From assembly GCA_052387815.1 (NCBI GenBank), contig JBQTIU010000022.1:15428-79427 (forward strand): 64,000 nt of DNA, given 5' to 3'. This DNA comes from Pseudomonadota bacterium (GTDB taxonomy: Bacteria; Pseudomonadota; Alphaproteobacteria; CACIAM-22H2). This document shows positions 3,168-30,840 of this stretch, piece by piece (position 1 is the stretch's first letter; each line of letters begins with the position of its first letter). The translations under genes and the position numbers were made by a program. The notes under the pieces were generated by a model. The model was not told the origin of the DNA, searched no databases, and was given only the letters and a program-made list of their open reading frames with translations.

Positions 3168-3191
3168 GCGCGCGTGGGCGCGCGGCCCTCG

Positions 3192-3599
3192 CTATCCGCT
3201 CGATCGGCTCACGAGCTCGAACTCGTCGAGCTTCGCGGCTTCGCGATCGAACGTTCCGGTGACCTCGCACGCGTGGCGATGATTCGAAAGGCCGATGAGC
3301 GCATCCGCGAAATCCATCTCGCCCACCTGGTAGCGCTGCGCCGCAACTCGCACAAGATCAGCGTCCTCCAGTGCAAGCCGATCGTGGCGCAGCAGATGGT
3401 CAATCGCCAGCGCGACGCGTGATCGGTCGATTCGTTGAACGCGTTCCAATGTCCATATGACCTCGCAGAGCACGACCCGGTTGACAAAACAGGGTTCCGC
3501 CCGGGTTTCGCGGGCCAGGTACCGCTCGGCCTGGTCCGCCTGCTCCCGGTCATCGTCGAGCAGCAGCCGCAAGAGAATGTTCGTGTCGATGCCCTTCAC
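3192..3599 (-). CDS. vapC: PIN-domain toxin VapC
   Basis: MKGIDTNILLRLLLDDD...FADALI..., PIN acidic residues, 135 aa. Start overlaps the stop of the upstream antitoxin by 4 bp. Confidence 0.85.
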   Translation of the reverse strand: MKGIDTNILLRLLLDDDREQADQAERYLARETRAEPCFVNRVVLCEVIWTLERVQRIDRSRVALAIDHLLRHDRLALEDADLVRVAAQRYQVGEMDFADALIGLSNHRHACEVTGTFDREAAKLDEFELVSRSSG

Positions 3600-3889
3600 G
3601 CCGAGCGCCGCGGACGCTTGGACTTGCGATAACCCAGCCCACGCATGACGTCTTTCGCCACCGCCTTCTTCATGGCTTCGTCCATCTCTTCCATCGACAG
3701 CTTCCGCCTGCCTGGCCGCGCGAGAAGGCCCTTGAGGCTCGAGATATCGTCGTCCACGGGGCGCAGAACGGCGCGGTCATCGCTTTCGACGGTGAACTCC
3801 ATCCGCGCGCCCGTCTTAAGGCGCAGCCGCTCGCGGACCTCCTTGGGGATCGTCGTCTGGCCCTTGCTGGTGAGGGTCGCGTAGGGCAT
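3596..3889 (-). CDS. vapB: AbrB/MazE-fold antitoxin VapB
   Basis: SpoVT/AbrB motif TIPKEVRERLRL, 97 aa, directly upstream of and overlapping vapC. Confidence 0.75.
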   Translation of the reverse strand: MPYATLTSKGQTTIPKEVRERLRLKTGARMEFTVESDDRAVLRPVDDDISSLKGLLARPGRRKLSMEEMDEAMKKAVAKDVMRGLGYRKSKRPRRSA

Positions 3890-8981: not shown

Positions 8982-9722
8982 TCACAGGCTGAACCCACCG
9001 TCGACCACGAACACCGATCCGGTGGTGAAGGCGCTTTCATCGCCGGCGAGATGGACGCCCACCGCCGCCACCTCCGCAGGGTGGCCCAGCCGGCCCATCG
9101 GCTGGCGGGCAATGAAGTCCTTGCGGGCCTGGATGGGATCGGCGAAGGCGGCGATGCGCGCCTCGAGCGACGGCGTCTCTATGGTTCCGGGGCAGATCGC
9201 GTTGCAGCGGATGCCCGCCCTGATGTAGTCGGCGGCGATCGCCTTGGTCAGCCCGATCACCGCCGCCTTGGTGGTGCCGTAGACGAAGCGGTTGGGGATC
9301 CCACGGATCGACGAGGCGCCCGAGGACACGTTGATGATCGATCCCTTTTTGCGCTGGAGCATGCCCGGTAGAACGGCGCGCGTGACCCAGTACATCGACC
9401 GCACGTTGAGGTTCATCGCGAACTCCCATTGCTCGTCGGTGCACTCGAGGATGGTGCCGTGATGGACGAAGCCGGCGCAGTTGAACAGCACCTCGATCGG
9501 CCCCACCGCGGCCGTGGTCGTGGCGATCGCCGTTTTGTCCAAGACATCGAGCCGGCGCGTGGCGATGCCCGGCGTGAGCGCGAGTTCCGTAAGCTTCGCC
9601 TCGTCGATATCGGTGGCGAAGACCGTAGCGCCCTCGGCGGCGAAGGCGAGCGCGGTTGCCCGGCCGATGCCCTGCGCCGCGGCGGTGACCAGCGCCGTCT
9701 TGCCGTGCAGCCGGTTGCCCAA
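8982..9722 (-). CDS. Short-chain dehydrogenase/reductase (SDR)
   Basis: LHGKTALVTAAAQGIGRA, NCAGF, YGTTKAA motifs. Proposed TTG start (complement 9722..9720) preceded by GAGGAGGGGGAG; the listed ORF extends upstream into shadow sequence. Confidence 0.7.
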   Translation of the reverse strand: MGNRLHGKTALVTAAAQGIGRATALAFAAEGATVFATDIDEAKLTELALTPGIATRRLDVLDKTAIATTTAAVGPIEVLFNCAGFVHHGTILECTDEQWEFAMNLNVRSMYWVTRAVLPGMLQRKKGSIINVSSGASSIRGIPNRFVYGTTKAAVIGLTKAIAADYIRAGIRCNAICPGTIETPSLEARIAAFADPIQARKDFIARQPMGRLGHPAEVAAVGVHLAGDESAFTTGSVFVVDGGFSL

Positions 9723-9825
9723 CTCCCCCTCCTCGTTCGCGCCCGGCGATGGTAGTGGGCCGAGCTTCCACCTGGCAAGCGAAGGCCCTATATTGGGGCG
9801 CGCGATTGCAACCTCGGAGCCCGCC

Positions 9826-11367
9826 ATGGCCGAAGCCGCCAGAGCGACCATTCGCCTCAACCCCTTGGACAACGTCGTCGTGGCGCGGACCGACATCCTG
9901 CGGGGGACCGCCATACCGGCCGAGGGCGTCAGCGCGCGCGCCCACATCCCCGCGGGCCACAAGCTCGCGACCCGCGCCATCCCGCTTGACGCGCCCGTGA
10001 AGCGCTACAACCAGGTCATCGGCTTCGCCACCGCGTCGATCGCGCCGGGCGATCACGTCCACACCCACAATTGCGAGATCCGAGACTTCGCGCGCGATTA
10101 CGGCTTCGGCGAGACCGCGCGGCCCACGCCCTATGTCAACGAGCCGGCGACCTTCCAGGGGATCGTGCGGCCGGACGGACGGGTGGCGACGCGCAATTTC
10201 ATCGGCGTGCTCACTTCGGTGAACTGCTCGGCGACCGTTGCCAAGCATATCGCCGCGGCCTTCAAGACGAATCCGTTCACGGGCGAGGGACCGCTCGCCG
10301 CCTTCCCGAACGTCGACGGCGTGGTCGCGCTCACGCACAAAAGCGGCTGCGGCATGAGCGGCGAGGGCGAGGGCATCGAGGTGTTGCGACGGACCATCGC
10401 GGGCTATGCGCGCCACCCCAATTTCGGCGCCGTGCTGGTGGTCGGGCTGGGCTGCGAGGTCAACCAGATCGACGCGCTCGTGCAGGAGGAAAAGCTGATC
10501 GCCGGCGACCTCCTCCAGACCATGACCATCCAGGAGACCGGGGGGACCGCGAAGACGGTCAAGTCCGCGATGTCCCGTATCAATGAGCTGCTGCCCGAGC
10601 TCGACAAGGTCCGCCGCCAGGCCGTGCCGGCCGCGCATATCACGGTCGGCCTGCAATGCGGCGGATCGGACGGCTATTCCGGGATCTCCGCCAACCCGGC
10701 GCTCGGCGCCGCCTCGGACCTCTTGGTGCGCCACGGCGGCACGGTGATCCTGTCGGAGACGCCGGAGACCTACGGCGCCGAGCACCTCTTGACCCGGCGC
10801 GCGGCGAGCCGCGAGGCTGGCGAGAAACTGGTCGCGCTGATGAAATGGTGGGAGGCCTACACCGCGCGCCACGGCGGCGAGATGGACCACAACCCGACGC
10901 CCGGCAACAAGGCCGGCGGCATCACCACCATCCTCGAGAAGTCGCTGGGCGCCGCCGCCAAGGCGGGCACGACCAACCTGGTCGAGGTGTACAAATACGC
11001 CGAACCGGTCATGGCCAAGGGCTTCGTGTTCATGGACACGCCCGGCTACGACCCGGTCTCGGCGACGGGCCAAGTCGCGGGCGGCGCCAATCTCGTCTGC
11101 TTCACCACCGGCCGCGGGTCGGTGTACGGCTGCAAGCCGGCGCCCTCGCTCAAGCTGGCGACCAACACCAGGCTCTACGAGCGGATGACCGACGACATGG
11201 ACTTGAACTGCGGCGGCATCATCGACGGCACCGAGACGATCGAGGAATGCGGGCGGCGCATCTTCGAGCTCATCTTGAAGACCGCGGCGGGCGAGAAGAC
11301 CAAGAGCGAGGGGCTGGGCTTCGGCGAGGACGAGTTCGCCCCCTGGCAGTTGGGGGCGGTGATGTGA
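9826..11367 (+). CDS. UxaA-family sugar-acid dehydratase (altronate/galactarate dehydratase, SAF N-domain)
   Basis: MAEAARATIRLNPLDNVVVARTDILRG (SAF domain), then the altronate-hydrolase-like body (GLGCEVNQ, GGSDGYSGISANP, FTTGRGS). ATG 9826 with GGAG 8 nt upstream; about 513 aa. Confidence 0.85.
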   Translation: MAEAARATIRLNPLDNVVVARTDILRGTAIPAEGVSARAHIPAGHKLATRAIPLDAPVKRYNQVIGFATASIAPGDHVHTHNCEIRDFARDYGFGETARPTPYVNEPATFQGIVRPDGRVATRNFIGVLTSVNCSATVAKHIAAAFKTNPFTGEGPLAAFPNVDGVVALTHKSGCGMSGEGEGIEVLRRTIAGYARHPNFGAVLVVGLGCEVNQIDALVQEEKLIAGDLLQTMTIQETGGTAKTVKSAMSRINELLPELDKVRRQAVPAAHITVGLQCGGSDGYSGISANPALGAASDLLVRHGGTVILSETPETYGAEHLLTRRAASREAGEKLVALMKWWEAYTARHGGEMDHNPTPGNKAGGITTILEKSLGAAAKAGTTNLVEVYKYAEPVMAKGFVFMDTPGYDPVSATGQVAGGANLVCFTTGRGSVYGCKPAPSLKLATNTRLYERMTDDMDLNCGGIIDGTETIEECGRRIFELILKTAAGEKTKSEGLGFGEDEFAPWQLGAVM

Positions 11368-11376
11368 GGGCGCCGG

Positions 11377-12144
11377 ATGAGCGATAGCCTGTTCTCGCTC
11401 GCGGGCCGCACGGCGCTGGTCACCGGCGCCTCGCGCGGCCTCGGCCTGGCGATCGCACGGGCGCTCGGGGCCCACGGCGCGCGCGTTGTTTTGAATGCCC
11501 GCGATGCCAAGCTCCTCGAGGCCCGCGCCACCGTGCTGCGGGACAAAGGGATCGCGGCCGAGGTCGCGCCCTTCGACGTCACCGACGAGGCGGCAGCCAC
11601 GGCCGCGCTCGCCCGCATCGCCCGCCAGCACGGGCGCCTCGACATCCTGGTCTCCAATGCTGGGATCAACATCCGCAAGGCCGCGCTCGAATATCCGACC
11701 GCGGATTTCCAGGCGGTGATCGCCACCAATCTCACCGCCTGCTTCATCCTCGGCCGCGAGGCCGGCAGGCTCATGGCGGCGCAAAATTACGGCCGCATCA
11801 TCATGGTGAGCTCGATCATCGCGCGCCTGGCCCGGCCCACAATCTCGGCCTACGCGGCCGCCAAGGCCGGGCTCGACTCGCTAACCCGCGCGCTCGCCGT
11901 CGAGCTGGGGCCGAAGGGGGTGACGGTCAACGCCATCGCACCGGGCTTTTTCGCCACCGACCTCAACGCCCCGCTCATGGCCAACCCGGACTTCGACGCC
12001 TTCGTGCGCAAGCGCACGCCGATCGGGCGCTGGGGCCAGCCCGACGAGCTCGGCGGCGCGGCCGTCTTCCTCGCCTCCGATGCGGCGGCTTACGTCAACG
12101 GCCACACGCTGGTGGTCGACGGCGGCGTCACCGTGGCGCTGTAG
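11377..12144 (+). CDS. Short-chain dehydrogenase/reductase (gluconate-5-dehydrogenase-like SDR)
   Basis: LAGRTALVTGASRGLGLAIA, SNAGI, YAAAKAG, 255 aa. Start is 10 nt after the dehydratase stop. Confidence 0.85.
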   Translation: MSDSLFSLAGRTALVTGASRGLGLAIARALGAHGARVVLNARDAKLLEARATVLRDKGIAAEVAPFDVTDEAAATAALARIARQHGRLDILVSNAGINIRKAALEYPTADFQAVIATNLTACFILGREAGRLMAAQNYGRIIMVSSIIARLARPTISAYAAAKAGLDSLTRALAVELGPKGVTVNAIAPGFFATDLNAPLMANPDFDAFVRKRTPIGRWGQPDELGGAAVFLASDAAAYVNGHTLVVDGGVTVAL

Positions 12145-12235
12145 AGCCCTCGGGGGCGAGATCGTCCTCGATGAAGGCGTTGATGATCGCGTCGATCGAG
12201 GCGTCCGCCTCGAACCCCATAGCGCGCGCGCCGCT
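12059..12235. repeat. Left copy of a ~180 bp direct duplication: SDR 3' end plus orphan epimerase C-terminal fragment
   Basis: 12059..12235 matches 13600..13778 with only a few mismatches, including an identical 76-nt block after the TAG stop. The minus-strand reading of the left copy gives ...ARAMGFEADASIDAIINAFIEDDLAPEGSTAPR*, the last ~33 aa of the epimerase encoded at 13670..14668. Confidence 0.7.
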
Positions 12236-12320
12236 GCGCTCGCGATGGGGCTTCGCGCCGCGCGCGGGTCCTCCGTGTGGACGACCGGGACGACCTCGCA
12301 CCTCATCCCCGGGCGCAAAA

Positions 12321-12366
12321 AAGTGTTACCAATGTGCCCGGTCTAAAGTGTTACCCATGTCCCCGG
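12321..12366 (+). promoter_or_regulatory. Two 21-bp tandem direct repeats upstream of the DUF433-MNT-HEPN operon (candidate operator/promoter)
   Basis: AAGTGTTACCAATGTGCCCGG (12321..12341) and AAGTGTTACCCATGTCCCCGG (12346..12366), 25-bp period, in a locally AT-richer patch 40 bp upstream of ATG 12405. Confidence 0.45.
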
Positions 12367-12404
12367 CTGTACAAGGAGCTGACCCGGAGCGGGGGAGAGA
12401 AGGC

Positions 12405-12611
12405 ATGGCCCGCAAGCGTATCGAGATCAACCCCCAGATCATGTTCGGCAAGCCGGTCATCCGAGGCACGCGGATCACCGTCGAGCACATCCTGCGCAAG
12501 CTGTCCGCCGGGAGGACGCCGGAAGAGATTCTGCGCAACCGTCCGCAACTGAGCGTCGACGACATCCGTGCCGCCGAGGCCTTCGCTGCCGATCTGGGGA
12601 GGACGCCATGA
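12405..12611 (+). CDS. DUF433-family small protein (antitoxin-like)
   Basis: MARKRIEINPQIMFGKPVIRGTRITVEHILRKLSAGRTPEEILRNRPQLSVDDIRAA fits the DUF433 pattern (GKPvIrGTRI). GGAG upstream; stop overlaps the next start (ATGA). Confidence 0.75.
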   Translation: MARKRIEINPQIMFGKPVIRGTRITVEHILRKLSAGRTPEEILRNRPQLSVDDIRAAEAFAADLGRTP

Positions 12612-12928
12612 TCAGCGCCGCAGTTCCGGAAGCCCTATTGAACTCGGTGATCGCCTATTTCAATCCGCGCCGGGTGATCCTGTTCGGCTCCGCTGCGCGC
12701 GGCGCGGCGGGACCCGACAGCGACTATGACCTGGTGGTCGTACTCGACGACGACGTGCCGCCGGAGCGATTGAGCTGGCGGGCGAGCTACGAGGCGCGGC
12801 GCGACTGGCACCGTGCGGTGGACATCCTCCAGTGTCGGGAAACGACCTTCCGCGAGCGATCCCGCATCGTCGGCTCGCTCGCCCACAGCGTCGCTACCGA
12901 GGGCGTCATCGTCTATGAGCGCACCTGA
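12608..12928 (+). CDS. Minimal nucleotidyltransferase (MNT) partner of a HEPN/MNT module
   Basis: ILFGSAARGAAGPDSDYDLVVVL (GS...DxD nucleotidyltransferase motif), 106 aa. Confidence 0.8.
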   Translation: MISAAVPEALLNSVIAYFNPRRVILFGSAARGAAGPDSDYDLVVVLDDDVPPERLSWRASYEARRDWHRAVDILQCRETTFRERSRIVGSLAHSVATEGVIVYERT

Positions 12929-13337
12929 GGATTCGCGCTGGCTGGAGGCGCGCCGCTGGTTCGCGGTCGCGAACGAGGATCTGCGCGTCGCCCGCGCCTG
13001 CCTGACGATGGACGAGCCGGCCCTCGGCGCGGCGGCGTATCACTGCCAGCAGGCGGTGGAGAAGCTTATGAAGGGGCTTCTCGTCGCGGGCGCGCGACCG
13101 TTCCGCAAGATCCACGATCTCGACGAACTTGCCGAGGCGGCAACGGCGGTATTTCCGGGCCTTCGTCCGCATCTCGACGCCTGCCGTCCGTTCACCCGCT
13201 GGGGAACCGCGCTCCGCTATCCGGAGATCGGCGACGAGGCGCTCGTCGGGCCGACGGCGGCGGACATCGCCTCGGCCCTGCCTCGGATCGAAGCCCTCGC
13301 CGCCGCCGTCGCCGAACTCGGTTCCGGACGACGGTAG
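12915..13337 (+). CDS. HEPN-domain protein (HepT-like toxin partner)
   Basis: AAYHCQQAVEKLMKGLLVAG helix typical of HEPN, then the ALRYP segment; 140 aa. Start ATG 12915 overlaps the MNT 3' end by 14 nt; the listed ORF 12813..13337 contains it. Confidence 0.75.
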   Translation: MSAPEDSRWLEARRWFAVANEDLRVARACLTMDEPALGAAAYHCQQAVEKLMKGLLVAGARPFRKIHDLDELAEAATAVFPGLRPHLDACRPFTRWGTALRYPEIGDEALVGPTAADIASALPRIEALAAAVAELGSGRR

Positions 13338-13517
13338 CCGCGGAGAATCAATCGCATGGCCATCGTCAACAAGGATCGCATCAGCCGCGGGCCGGAGCTG
13401 CTGCGCCAAGGGCTGACGCCCTTGATCGAACGGCAGCTCGAGGCGCGACTCGGCGCCAACGGGGTGAAGCGCGCCCTCGAGCTCATCCTCGAGACCGCGG
13501 CGGGCTCGAACACCCAA

Positions 13518-13686
13518 GGGCGGCGCCGGCCTCGAGGAGCTTGGCGCCGCGGGCGTTCAAGACCACGCGCGCGCCGCCGAGCTGCGGGGCAAAGGGATCG
13601 CGGCGGTGTTCCTCGCCTCCGACGCGGCGGCTTACGTCAACGGCCACACGCTGGTGGTCGACGGTGGCGTCACCGTGGCGCTGTAG
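13518..13686 (+). pseudogene. Scrambled remnant of a second copy of the 11377..12144 SDR gene
   Basis: 13521..13577 is the reverse complement of SDR nt ~11472..11535. 13578..13603 matches SDR nt ~11536..11562 in direct orientation. 13604..13686 matches the SDR 3' end 12062..12144 including the TAG stop. No intact reading frame. Confidence 0.6.
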
Positions 13687-13778
13687 AGCCCTCGGGGGCG
13701 AGATCGTCCTCGATGAAGGCGTTGATGATCGCGTCGATCGAGGCGTCCGCCTCGAACCCCATCGCGCGCGCGCGCCGC
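13600..13778. repeat. Right copy of the ~180 bp direct duplication (SDR remnant 3' end plus intact epimerase 3' end)
   Basis: See left copy 12059..12235. Identity breaks at ~12235/13778. Confidence 0.7.
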
Positions 13779-14668
13779 GAATCGAGCCGGCCCGGCCAGC
13801 CGTCGACGATGTTCTGGATGCGCGGATCGATTTCCCACTGGATGCGCCCGTAGGCGGCCGCGCCGGCGACCCGCCGCAGGCCCTCGGCCATCTCGGCCAC
13901 CGACAGATCGAGCGAGGGCAGCATCAGCGTCCGCCAGCTGCCCCAGGCCGCTTGCGGCAGGTCGTGGGCGCGGATGAATGCCGCAATTGTCCGGCGCGGG
14001 CTCAACAGCGGCATCATCGAAGTGGGCTTGACCGGACAGACGGCGGTCTTGCCCATCAGCGGCTCGCGGATGATCGAGGAAGCGAAGGTCGAGGCGGCGG
14101 GGTTGGGCTTGCCCGGGCGGACCACGATGGTCGGCAGGCGCAAGCACCGCCCGTCGATGAAGCCCTTGCGGGAATAGTCGGCGATCAGCAGTTCGCCCAT
14201 CGCCTTATGGGCGCCGTAGGAGGTCTGGGGGGTGAGCTTGTGGCCGTCGGCGATGACCTCGGGCAGCTCGCCCCCGAACACCGCGACCGAGGAGGCGAAC
14301 ACCAACCGCGGCGGCGAGCCCAGCGCGCGGCAGGCCTCGAGGACGGCGCGCGTGCCGTCGAGATTGACGCGGTAGCCGAGATCGAAATCGGCCTCGGCGC
14401 CGGCGCTCACCACCGCCGCGAAGTGGAACACGGCCCCGGTGTCGGCCGAGATCACGCGTTTCATCAATTGGGCGTCGTCGATCTCGCCGGCGACGAAGGT
14501 GAGCCGGCGGTCGGCCGGCAGGTCGCTCGCCGCGACGTTGTCGAACAGGACCAGGCGAGCGATGGCTCGCGGCTTCCCGTCCGGCCCGGCGAGGCCGCCC
14601 CGCTTCAAGAGCTCGCGCGCCAGCTTCTTGCCCAGCATCCCGGCGCCACCGGTGATCACGACCTGCAT
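13670..14668 (-). CDS. NAD-dependent epimerase/dehydratase-family oxidoreductase (DenD-like sugar-acid dehydrogenase family)
   Basis: MQVVITGGAGMLGKKLAREL (Rossmann GxxGxxG), YGAHKAMGE (YxxxK), 332 aa. Confidence 0.85.
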   Translation of the reverse strand: MQVVITGGAGMLGKKLARELLKRGGLAGPDGKPRAIARLVLFDNVAASDLPADRRLTFVAGEIDDAQLMKRVISADTGAVFHFAAVVSAGAEADFDLGYRVNLDGTRAVLEACRALGSPPRLVFASSVAVFGGELPEVIADGHKLTPQTSYGAHKAMGELLIADYSRKGFIDGRCLRLPTIVVRPGKPNPAASTFASSIIREPLMGKTAVCPVKPTSMMPLLSPRRTIAAFIRAHDLPQAAWGSWRTLMLPSLDLSVAEMAEGLRRVAGAAAYGRIQWEIDPRIQNIVDGWPGRLDSRRARAMGFEADASIDAIINAFIEDDLAPEGSTAPR

Positions 14669-30100: not shown

Positions 30101-30447
30101 GCACCATCGTCTTGTCGGCGAAGCGCGCCCGAGCGCCGCAGCCGTTCCAGTTGTCCGCTCGCCTGCAGCTCTTCCCACCGCCCGAGCGTGGCGATCACCC
30201 GTTGGCGGACCTGCCGCCCGGTGCGCACGCTCCCCACGATCGGCAAGTAGGCGCGCCCGCCGGAGTCCTCTTGCGGAAGTACAACGGTGCCTCCGTGTGG
30301 TGCGCACGGAATCACCGAACACAACGCCGAAATCAGCAAAAATAAAGCACCGACGTGGCACTATAAATTCAGCCCCTTCCACCCTCGCCTCTCAACCTAT
30401 CAAGGGGTTACGCCATGCCACCCGTCGGGAACCGATGAAGATGGGTG

Positions 30448-30840
30448 AGAGCGGATGACCTCCGCCTCGCGCACCCGCTCGTAGCGTGCATCCAAGATCA
30501 GATACGGATCGGGCTCGACCAGCCGCCGGCTGGCAAACGCCGCCAGGCCCGCGTCCAGGGTCTTGTTGATGGCGCTGATCGCGGAGGCTGAGAACTGGTG
30601 CCCGCAGAGTTCTTCCGTAATCGCCTTGATCTTGCGGCTCGACACGCCCTGGACGTACATCTCCGCCAACCTCCCGACCAGTGCCTTCTCCGAGCGCCGG
30701 TAGCGAGCGAACAGCGCGGTCGAAAATCGCCCTTCGCGATCCTGCGGCACCCGCAGCTCGAGCTTGCCCACCCGCGTGATCAGAGTCCGGCCGTAATAGC
30801 CGGCCCAGTCGCCAAGACGTCCCGCCGTTCGCCCGCCGGA
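30448..30840 (-). mobile_element. IS256-family transposase internal fragment (residues ~80-210 equivalent)
   Basis: Minus-strand ...DWAGYYGRTLITRVGKLELRVPQDREGRFSTALFARYRRSEKALVGRLAEMYVQGVSSRKIKAITEELCGHQFSASAISAINKTLDAGLAAFASRRLVEPDPYLILDARYERVREAEVIRS is near-consensus IS256 family. Both termini are missing: stop codon upstream, and divergence after VIRS. Confidence 0.75.

Follow-up and report, generated by a model that had tools for sequence, protein, structure and literature searches.

The locus described here raises the question of how a foreign piece of DNA, about 1.2 kb long, came to lie between two sugar-acid genes and to be flanked by two copies of their junction. It is found in a stretch of 64,000 nucleotides (the window, hereafter) from contig JBQTIU010000022.1 (positions 15,428 to 79,427, forward strand) of GenBank assembly GCA_052387815.1, a metagenome-assembled genome (MAG) of a Pseudomonadota bacterium placed in the Alphaproteobacteria (CACIAM-22H2). 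The two genes encode a short-chain dehydrogenase/reductase (SDR) and a D-erythronate dehydrogenase, and the piece between them carries a cassette of three genes, coding for a DUF433 protein, a minimal nucleotidyltransferase (MNT), and a HEPN-domain protein. The favoured answer, which is given a probability of about 0.45, is a recombination scar: two diverged versions of the locus would have recombined, partly by homologous and partly by illegitimate joining, and the redundant SDR copy would then have decayed.

Structure of the duplicated junction

The structure of the locus, the identities of its parts, and the microhomologies at its junctions can be read directly from the DNA (Table 1). The original prediction, made from the sequence alone, was that a near-identical junction of about 180 bp is present twice, and this is borne out. 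Repeat finding, MAFFT alignment, and blastn (E 2e-85) delimit a direct repeat of 175 nt, at 12057-12231 and 13599-13773, with 97% identity and five mismatches. These fall at positions 12063, 12066, 12081, 12123, and 12221 of the left copy, leaving an exact core of 97 nt (12124-12220), of which 76 nt lie 3' of the SDR stop codon and form the post-stop block already described as identical. At the edges of this core, the copies differ by C12123 and A12221 on the left, and by T13665 and C13763 on the right. All five differences are synonymous third-position changes; the SDR variants of the right copy comprise the GARVVLNARGAKLLEAGAAELRGKGIA region and the synonymous changes at 13605, 13608, 13623, and 13665, while the orphan dehydrogenase remnant differs from the intact gene by one nucleotide, also synonymously.

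Gene calls made with Pfam and NCBIfam agree with what had been proposed for the two sides: on the left are the intact SDR gene and an orphan 33-residue C-terminus of the epimerase-family protein (the dehydrogenase), and on the right the intact dehydrogenase gene and an SDR remnant. In both copies, the SDR and dehydrogenase frames are convergent, with a tail-to-tail overlap of 17 nt. Since each stop lies 17 nt past the other on both sides, the immediate ancestor already had this overlap, a conclusion drawn entirely from how the two copies are built. The C-terminus of the orphan dehydrogenase is also in frame with 24 upstream codons of the insert, which makes a chimeric open reading frame (ORF) of 57 amino acids with a GTG start (12128-12301, minus strand).

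The duplication extends further than the 175-nt repeat. Although a repeat of about 180 bp had been correctly described, three further pieces of upstream genes, located at 13469-13604, just left of the right copy, had been overlooked; they are detected by repeat finding and blastn. The segments of the right copy are colinear with the intact locus, matching in turn 11256-11308, 11475-11532 (inverted), 11521-11558, and 12057-12231. The piece from the dehydratase gene is the weakest match, and its assignment is supported by its colinearity with the other scraps. As the scraps and the repeat together are colinear with 11256-12231, the right side is a damaged second copy of at least this segment, and the original duplication measured at least 976 nt. 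This second copy has suffered two deletions, of 166 and 504 nt, and a fold-back inversion of 58 nt. At the scrap junctions, the joined sequences overlap by 4 nt (GGCG), 10 nt (GCGCGCGCCG), and 7 nt (GCGGC(C/G)G), the last of these being the microhomology at which the direct SDR scrap joins the SDR 3' remnant over the 504-nt deletion, which is in frame.

The identity between the two copies climbs from left to right, from about 80% in the dehydratase scrap to 88% and 89% in the two SDR scraps, 94% in the first 67 nt of the repeat, and 99% in its last 108 nt. This unevenness is significant (p ~0.003, chi-square test on the difference counts). In the SDR remnants, the proportion of synonymous differences (pS) is 0.16-0.25 in the two longer ones, and that of non-synonymous differences (pN) is 0-0.12 in all three. 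The variant residues of the right copy, NARG and AAEL, are also found in natural SDR homologues. A frame of 165 codons remains open through this region (13356-13853). It begins with the 37-codon start of a Swt1-type HEPN gene, which is fused in frame to the dehydratase scrap, and then crosses the SDR remnant in a different frame; this chimeric ORF is probably without meaning.

Assembly support

As the sequence comes from a MAG, and the two copies differ by single-nucleotide polymorphisms (SNPs), as strain variants do, the contig might have chained strain variants through the shared repeat, the copies never having been on one molecule. Such an artefact is very unlikely here. A look-up with the 140-residue HEPN protein retrieved one Logan contig (L127; 1463 nt, k=31, run SRR34758880), which matches 12191-13653 at 100% identity. 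Its two ends lie exactly 30 nt outside the SNPs at 12221 and 13623, as is expected of a k=31 graph if the reads contain both repeat copies. Its unbranched path links A12221, the entire cassette, the scraps, and the right-copy variants at 13605, 13608, and 13623, and confirms both inner junctions. Because this one unbranched contig carries variants of both copies, at least the inner halves of the two repeat copies lie on one molecule, and the outer links span the 97-nt exact core. In addition, a simple strain bubble cannot yield both an orphan dehydrogenase remnant and an SDR remnant.

Nature of the insert

The foreign insert proper covers 1237 nt (12232-13468) and consists, in order, of one end of an insertion sequence (IS), the DUF433-MNT-HEPN genes, and the first 37 codons of a Swt1-family HEPN gene. 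The DUF433-MNT-HEPN content expected between the two junction copies is confirmed by Pfam. The description of this cassette as AT-richer is weakly true: the GC content dips to 0.60-0.67 at 12300-12800, compared with 0.69-0.73 in the flanks, and the GC content at third codon positions (GC3) is lower, although the contrast is modest. The cassette looks foreign because the GC3 of its three genes is 0.81-0.84, compared with 0.91-0.92 in the neighbouring genes.

At the left edge, the first 88 nt (12232-12319) have no significant match in the window, in plasmids, or in IS481 transposases, and are possibly IS interior. They are followed by a tandem pair of 22-nt repeats (12320-12366), which had been taken for promoter repeats belonging to the cassette and which are instead terminal repeats of the IS481 family. 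The motif is unique in the 64-kb window, with zero occurrences expected by chance, and recurs, again with a period of 25 nt, on plasmids from several genera, among them Escherichia, Enterobacter, and Rhizobium. On an Enterobacter plasmid (L129) and a Rhizobium plasmid (L131), two tandem copies of GTTACCNATGTNNCCGG flank transposases matching NF033577; the motif stands just 3' of the stop codon of a DDE transposase gene, and an inverted copy is found upstream of the gene. The Rhizobium transposase scores 225 bits against the NCBIfam IS481 model (cut-off 224), and the Enterobacter one scores 202.8 bits, which is below this cut-off. The motif also adjoins a truncated transposase, 84% identical to that of the Enterobacter plasmid, on an E. 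coli plasmid (L130), and lies 3' of a transposase C-terminus on a soil metagenome contig (L077). The 22-nt tandem terminal repeat (AAAGTGTTACCNATGTNNCCGG) is thus kept at IS481-family ends from E. coli and Enterobacter to Rhizobium plasmids, and in this high-GC MAG. The window and the E. coli plasmid are also alike for about 14 nt beyond the apparent IS terminus (GGAGCTGNYCCGG).

The motif always reads from the interior of the element towards its tip. On this basis, the IS tip in the window (at about 12373) faces the DUF433 gene, 31 nt before its start codon, and the body of the IS would have lain leftwards. Since the IS end points outward in this way, the cassette lies outside the IS. No transposase homologue was found at 12232-13598, and no second IS end was found near 13468 or elsewhere in the window.

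At the right edge, most of the plasmid tblastn matches listed for the Swt1-type fragment (ATG at 13356) span its residues 1-37/40 and fall under genes annotated as 'Swt1 family HEPN domain-containing protein' (E 8e-4 to 0.6). A protein homologue search with the 41-residue fragment gave no candidates. The Swt1-type match ends where the dehydratase scrap starts. As both edges cut through other features (an IS and a Swt1-HEPN gene), the insert is an arbitrary slice of a foreign toxin-antitoxin (TA) or defence island, not a bounded element. One-ended, ISEcp1-like mobilisation was considered and ruled out, as it would need a surrogate end near 13468, and none is present there. An integron cassette or another site-specific integration was likewise ruled out, as neither an attC-like sequence nor an att-type flanking inverted repeat is present, and the insert holds no integrase.

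Table 1. Positions of the features discussed, in the window unless a locus is named
Feature	Position	Strand	Evidence and remarks
Galactarate/altronate dehydratase-family gene	9481..11367	+	Pfam GD_AH_C, GD_AH_second, SAF; 3' end is the source of one right-copy scrap
Intact SDR gene (gluconate 5-dehydrogenase-like), 255 aa	11377..12144	+	Pfam adh_short_C2 2e-65; NCBIfam PRK06124 316 bits (cut-off 303); 100% match to a protein of an NCBI MAG
Left repeat copy (SDR 3' end and dehydrogenase 3' end)	12057..12231	+	Repeat finding, MAFFT, blastn
Orphan dehydrogenase 3' remnant (last 33 codons and stop)	12128..12231	-	Translation identical to the C-terminus of the intact gene
88-nt stretch of no recognised origin	12232..12319	.	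On the inner side of the IS end; left breakpoint in a (GC)5 run
Solo IS481-family end	12320..12373	+	22-nt tandem repeats 12320-12341 and 12345-12366, period 25; ...CTGTACA terminus facing DUF433
DUF433 (COG2442) gene, 68 aa, small DNA-binding protein	12405..12611	+	Pfam DUF433 7.8e-23, full length
MNT gene, 106 aa	12608..12928	+	Pfam NTP_transf_2, Polbeta; PADLOC PDC-S09
HEPN-domain protein gene (PF05168), 140 aa	12915..13337	+	Pfam HEPN 2.7e-12; 100% match to a protein of a Pseudomonadota MAG
5' fragment (~37 codons) of Swt1-family HEPN gene	13356..13468	+	tblastn against plasmids; Pfam HEPN_Swt1 profile positions 4-33, E 0.06, sub-threshold
Dehydratase 3'-end scrap	13469..13522	+	Matches 11256-11308, ~80% identity; blastn core E 0.005
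Inverted SDR scrap	13519..13576	-	Reverse complement of 11475-11532, 88% identity, blastn E 2e-11
Direct SDR scrap	13567..13604	+	Matches 11521-11558, 89% identity, blastn E 1e-6
Right repeat copy	13599..13773	+	13599-13686 is the SDR 3' remnant (last 28 codons and stop)
Intact D-erythronate dehydrogenase gene, 332 aa	13670..14668	-	NCBIfam NF043036 equivalog 443.8 bits (cut-off 325); Pfam Epimerase
Tandem terminal repeat sites	window 12320-12387; L129 2796-2812, 4007-4048; L131 2764-2805, 4007-4048; L130 4005-4046; L077 242-283		
Dehydrogenase-SDR gaps in the seven nearest loci	L001 1425-2526; L003 8978-10758; L004 8975-12365; L005 8975-14436; L006 5060-7269; L007 8969-9735; L023 8991-9996		
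Closest MNT-HEPN relatives	L132 307-1045; L128 5694-6423; L047 305-1037; L133 107-477		

Comparison with other genomes

The relatives of this locus are distant, at 71-78% amino acid identity. The best match to the dehydrogenase in 185,579 species genomes reaches 78% amino acid identity, and the best match to the SDR among 5.8 billion proteins, the source MAG aside, reaches 75%. Exact-protein look-ups with the dehydrogenase, the SDR, and a 139-residue reading of the HEPN protein gave no match.

The seven nearest loci belong to uncultured Acetobacteraceae, Rhodospirillales, and other alphaproteobacterial MAGs. The order running from an ABC transporter and the dehydrogenase to the SDR is kept in them, and the dehydratase follows the SDR in one (L023). 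The convergent dehydrogenase and SDR genes are 0.8-5.5 kb apart in these loci and never abut. The content of the gap differs by genome, for example, a metallo-beta-lactamase-fold protein, an EcsC protein with an AraC regulator and an MFS transporter, a chemoreceptor, or a second SDR. DUF433, MNT, and HEPN genes are absent from all seven. The expectation that the SDR and epimerase genes should abut thus fails for the relatives, but it holds for the immediate ancestor, where it follows from the internal structure of the two copies. Relatives carrying the same duplicated junction around other content, which would have spoken against an insertion, were looked for, and none of their loci shows such a duplication. 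By these comparisons, the gap between the dehydrogenase and SDR genes is a generally variable position, the tight overlap deduced for the ancestor of this lineage is an exception, and the duplication is specific to this genome.

Origin of the structure

If two diverged versions of the locus recombined, the events may have taken the following order. In the ancestor, the dehydratase, SDR, and dehydrogenase genes would have stood in a row, the last two converging with their 17-nt overlap. One of the two versions that recombined would have borne the island fragment, made up of the IS481-family end, the DUF433-MNT-HEPN genes, and the start of the Swt1-type HEPN gene. One join would have been homologous, in or beyond the 3' end of the dehydrogenase gene, and the other illegitimate, in the (GC)5 run at 12231/12232. 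Because the illegitimate join fell within a region that the incoming piece also carried, the locus would have ended up in two overlapping copies, with 11256-12231 to the left of the 1237-nt foreign piece and the counterpart of this segment to its right. The right SDR copy, now redundant, would then have been broken by the two deletions, mediated by microhomology, and by the fold-back inversion, leaving the 175-nt repeat and the scraps.

Illegitimate joining is indicated by the position of all junctions in GC-rich microhomology, with the left breakpoint in the (GC)5 run. The origin from diverged versions is suggested by the comparison of the copies, which look more like alleles that diverged while both were functional than like a fresh duplicate undergoing random decay, given the uneven identity, the synonymous differences in the repeat, and the variant residues seen in natural SDR homologues. 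An insertion into the 17-nt overlap keeps both genes whole only if the overlap is duplicated, which would explain why this form survived; convergently overlapping genes may tolerate only insertions of this kind.

Several points weigh against this proposal. The excess of synonymous changes is not decisive: for the repeat (five out of five), it has a p of ~0.016 under a model of one constrained and one neutral copy, and over all SDR and dehydrogenase differences (nine out of 14), it is not significant. The identity gradient could reflect gene conversion homogenising the longest repeat, and the dehydratase scrap has a pN higher than its pS, which resembles decay. The proposal also needs a prior fusion of the Swt1-type and dehydratase fragments in the island-bearing version, i.e., a second illegitimate junction. 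Finally, neither an empty site nor a donor allele was found in any collection searched, and these collections hold no close relative.

Owing to the weakness of the substitution statistics and to the decay-like dehydratase scrap, a serious rival is duplication in situ with captured filler, although it is rather unlikely. End-joining or microhomology-mediated template switching, acting on two sister chromatids or at a collapsed replication fork, would have connected 12231 to 11256 out of register, and a stray 1.2-kb piece of foreign DNA would have been trapped at the joint; the second SDR copy would then have decayed, while gene conversion kept the 175-nt stretch similar. The microhomology at every internal junction, the fold-back inversion, which is typical of template switching, and the two insert ends, which are arbitrary cuts through an IS and a gene, all fit such an event. 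It is less easily reconciled with the significantly uneven divergence (10-20% in the scraps versus 1-6% in the repeat), with five repeat differences that are all synonymous, and with variant residues resembling natural alleles, and it requires a tandem duplication of about 1 kb to outlast recombinational loss until a synonymous divergence (dS) of ~0.2 was reached.

Another possibility is Campbell-type integration, in which one homologous crossover would bring in a small circle that held the cassette together with a copy of the junction region. Such a crossover is expected to leave an insert flanked by direct repeats, and the 97-nt exact core would support one mediated by RecA. This is nevertheless improbable: a circle holding both an island fragment and a fragment of the locus itself needs explaining, a single crossover does not predict the identity gradient, and Pfam and PADLOC revealed no replication or integration function. 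The least credible possibility, with hardly any weight, is transposition of a mobile TA cassette that duplicated a target of about 180 bp. The original prediction had put an insertion duplicating its target beside repair by recombination; recombination fits best, whereas a transposon-type target duplication is very unlikely. Direct repeats do flank the insert and an IS end is present, but this end points outward with the cassette outside it, it is the only one, the insert is truncated on both sides and has a cut-off gene at its other edge, no transposase is encoded, and no sequence resembling an IS end lies near 13468. Moreover, a duplication of at least 976 nt is far beyond the few bp of target that DDE transposases duplicate.

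The probable toxin-antitoxin cassette

The three cassette genes are all full length. The stop codon of the DUF433 gene overlaps the start codon of the MNT gene (ATGA), so that the three genes form one operon, and the MNT and HEPN genes overlap by 14 nt. The MNT protein carries the GSx(n)DxD nucleotidyltransferase motif (GSAARG...DSDYD). Across 60 homologues of the HEPN protein, the conserved residues are H43, Q45/Q46, E49/K50, R64-K65-x-H67-D68, and R101-Y102-P103, and the protein in the window has them. A sequence search of the PDB gave nothing useful for the HEPN protein and one weak match, 1wot, for the MNT protein. As its genes are intact, the cassette is probably functional, with MNT and HEPN acting as a toxin-antitoxin pair and DUF433 serving as their DNA-binding regulator, judging from what is known of these families. 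The pair does not appear to be a demonstrable member of the HepT/MntA type VII family, since the HEPN protein matches PF05168 only, not the DUF86/HepT family (and has no NCBIfam match), and the MNT protein scores 41.8 bits against the NCBIfam MntA_antitoxin model (NF047752), the cut-off of which is 60.

The MNT and HEPN genes are adjacent in 62 of 82 related loci, the window's own contig L127 being counted. In the closest relatives, nucleotide identity of 72-81% is limited to 12616-13340, i.e., to the MNT and HEPN genes alone. Around the pair lie unrelated housekeeping genes; in L132, for example, it separates the ATPase gene of an ABC transporter from the permease gene, and in L128, it has an ABC-transporter ATPase gene on one side and a 2-hydroxyacid dehydrogenase gene on the other. 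In L133, it precedes a different, uncharacterised gene. In these three loci and in L047, homology stops at the gene boundaries, no mobility gene is found nearby, and no DUF433 gene is present. As the pair alone is conserved in such unrelated contexts, the MNT-HEPN module would seem to move independently. A DUF433 gene is found nearby in just two other related loci, and in neither of them does it lie directly upstream in the same orientation.

The DUF433-MNT-HEPN operon could also be a true three-component TA unit, in which an antitoxin of the type paired with PIN toxins was recruited as the regulator of an MNT-HEPN pair, and in which addiction could also hold the unstable direct-repeat duplication in place; this idea is speculative and rather doubtful. 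If it were true, any pop-out between the 175-nt repeats, mediated by RecA, would cost the cell its antitoxin and so be lethal. A precise pop-out, i.e., an empty site, would read C12123, a C at the position of 12221, and then GCGCCGCGAATCG.

Other features of the window

An Rfam scan of 12100-13800 gave no RNA match, and a consensus scan of 12000-13900 gave neither a sigma-70 promoter nor an intrinsic terminator. In the dehydratase ORF, the Pfam and TIGR03248 matches begin only near residue 123-130, and the ORF called mechanically from 9481 overlaps a divergent upstream SDR ORF (8982-9980, minus strand); the real start is therefore probably downstream of 9481, near 9820-9850. Further away, a MazE/AbrB-type antitoxin gene (3599-3889, minus strand; Pfam MazE_antitoxin 1.9e-11) lies beside small ORFs of lower GC3 (3174-3648), and this region is possibly another toxin-antitoxin locus. 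A fragment of an IS256-family transposase (Transposase_mut; 123 amino acids, profile positions 74-181 of 379) is found at 30403-30771 on the minus strand, in a stretch of lower GC3, and is another IS relic.

Comparison with known systems

The structure is real, well resolved, and ordinary, and leaves the current understanding unchanged. It offers a small, clean example of how TA or defence modules enter chromosomal operons without dedicated mobility machinery, and, for an uncultured, alphaproteobacterium-like lineage, its scrambled remnants preserve the traces of fold-back inversion and of deletion mediated by microhomology. What is mildly unusual is the DUF433-MNT-HEPN gene order and the neatness of the record of microhomology rearrangement.

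The IS end shares its 22-nt repeats and its ...TGTAC(A) terminus with the IS481-family ends of the Enterobacter, Rhizobium, and E. coli plasmids and the soil contig. Compared with intact IS481-family elements, what the window retains is a single end, with neither a transposase nor a second end, and this end is an inactive relic.

The HepT/MntA type VII systems have been characterised by experiment. By comparison with these, the cassette has a PF05168 HEPN protein, an MNT protein below the MntA cut-off, and a DUF433 gene translationally coupled upstream. MNT-HEPN toxin-antitoxin pairs were predicted as a class by Makarova et al. in 2009 (PMC2701414), and the pair in the window shares with this class the adjacent, overlapping PF01909 and HEPN genes, which form a self-contained module found in many unrelated contexts. 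In the same work, COG2442 (DUF433) was predicted to be the antitoxin of PIN toxins, and no other conserved neighbours were found for it (PMC2701414). Like these DUF433-PIN pairs, the cassette has a full-length DUF433 protein as the first gene product of a small operon, but there is no PIN or DUF5615 partner, and DUF433 precedes MNT-HEPN.

The proposed recombination between diverged locus versions resembles homology-facilitated illegitimate recombination, which has been described in Acinetobacter, S. pneumoniae, and P. stutzeri, and reported in E. coli conjugation (PMC3240628). The same mechanism was proposed for the orphan gene remnants in the type VI secretion system arrays of V. cholerae (PMC5361080). 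The features that fit are the foreign DNA beside a homologous stretch, a join at a GC-rich microhomology, and what was left behind, namely orphan 3' remnants and a conserved stretch that is repeated. Here, only the product is seen, the parental sequences being absent from the collections searched. Furthermore, homology-facilitated illegitimate recombination usually gives a deletion, whereas the outcome at this locus is a duplication, with the illegitimate join placed inside the anchor's own homology.

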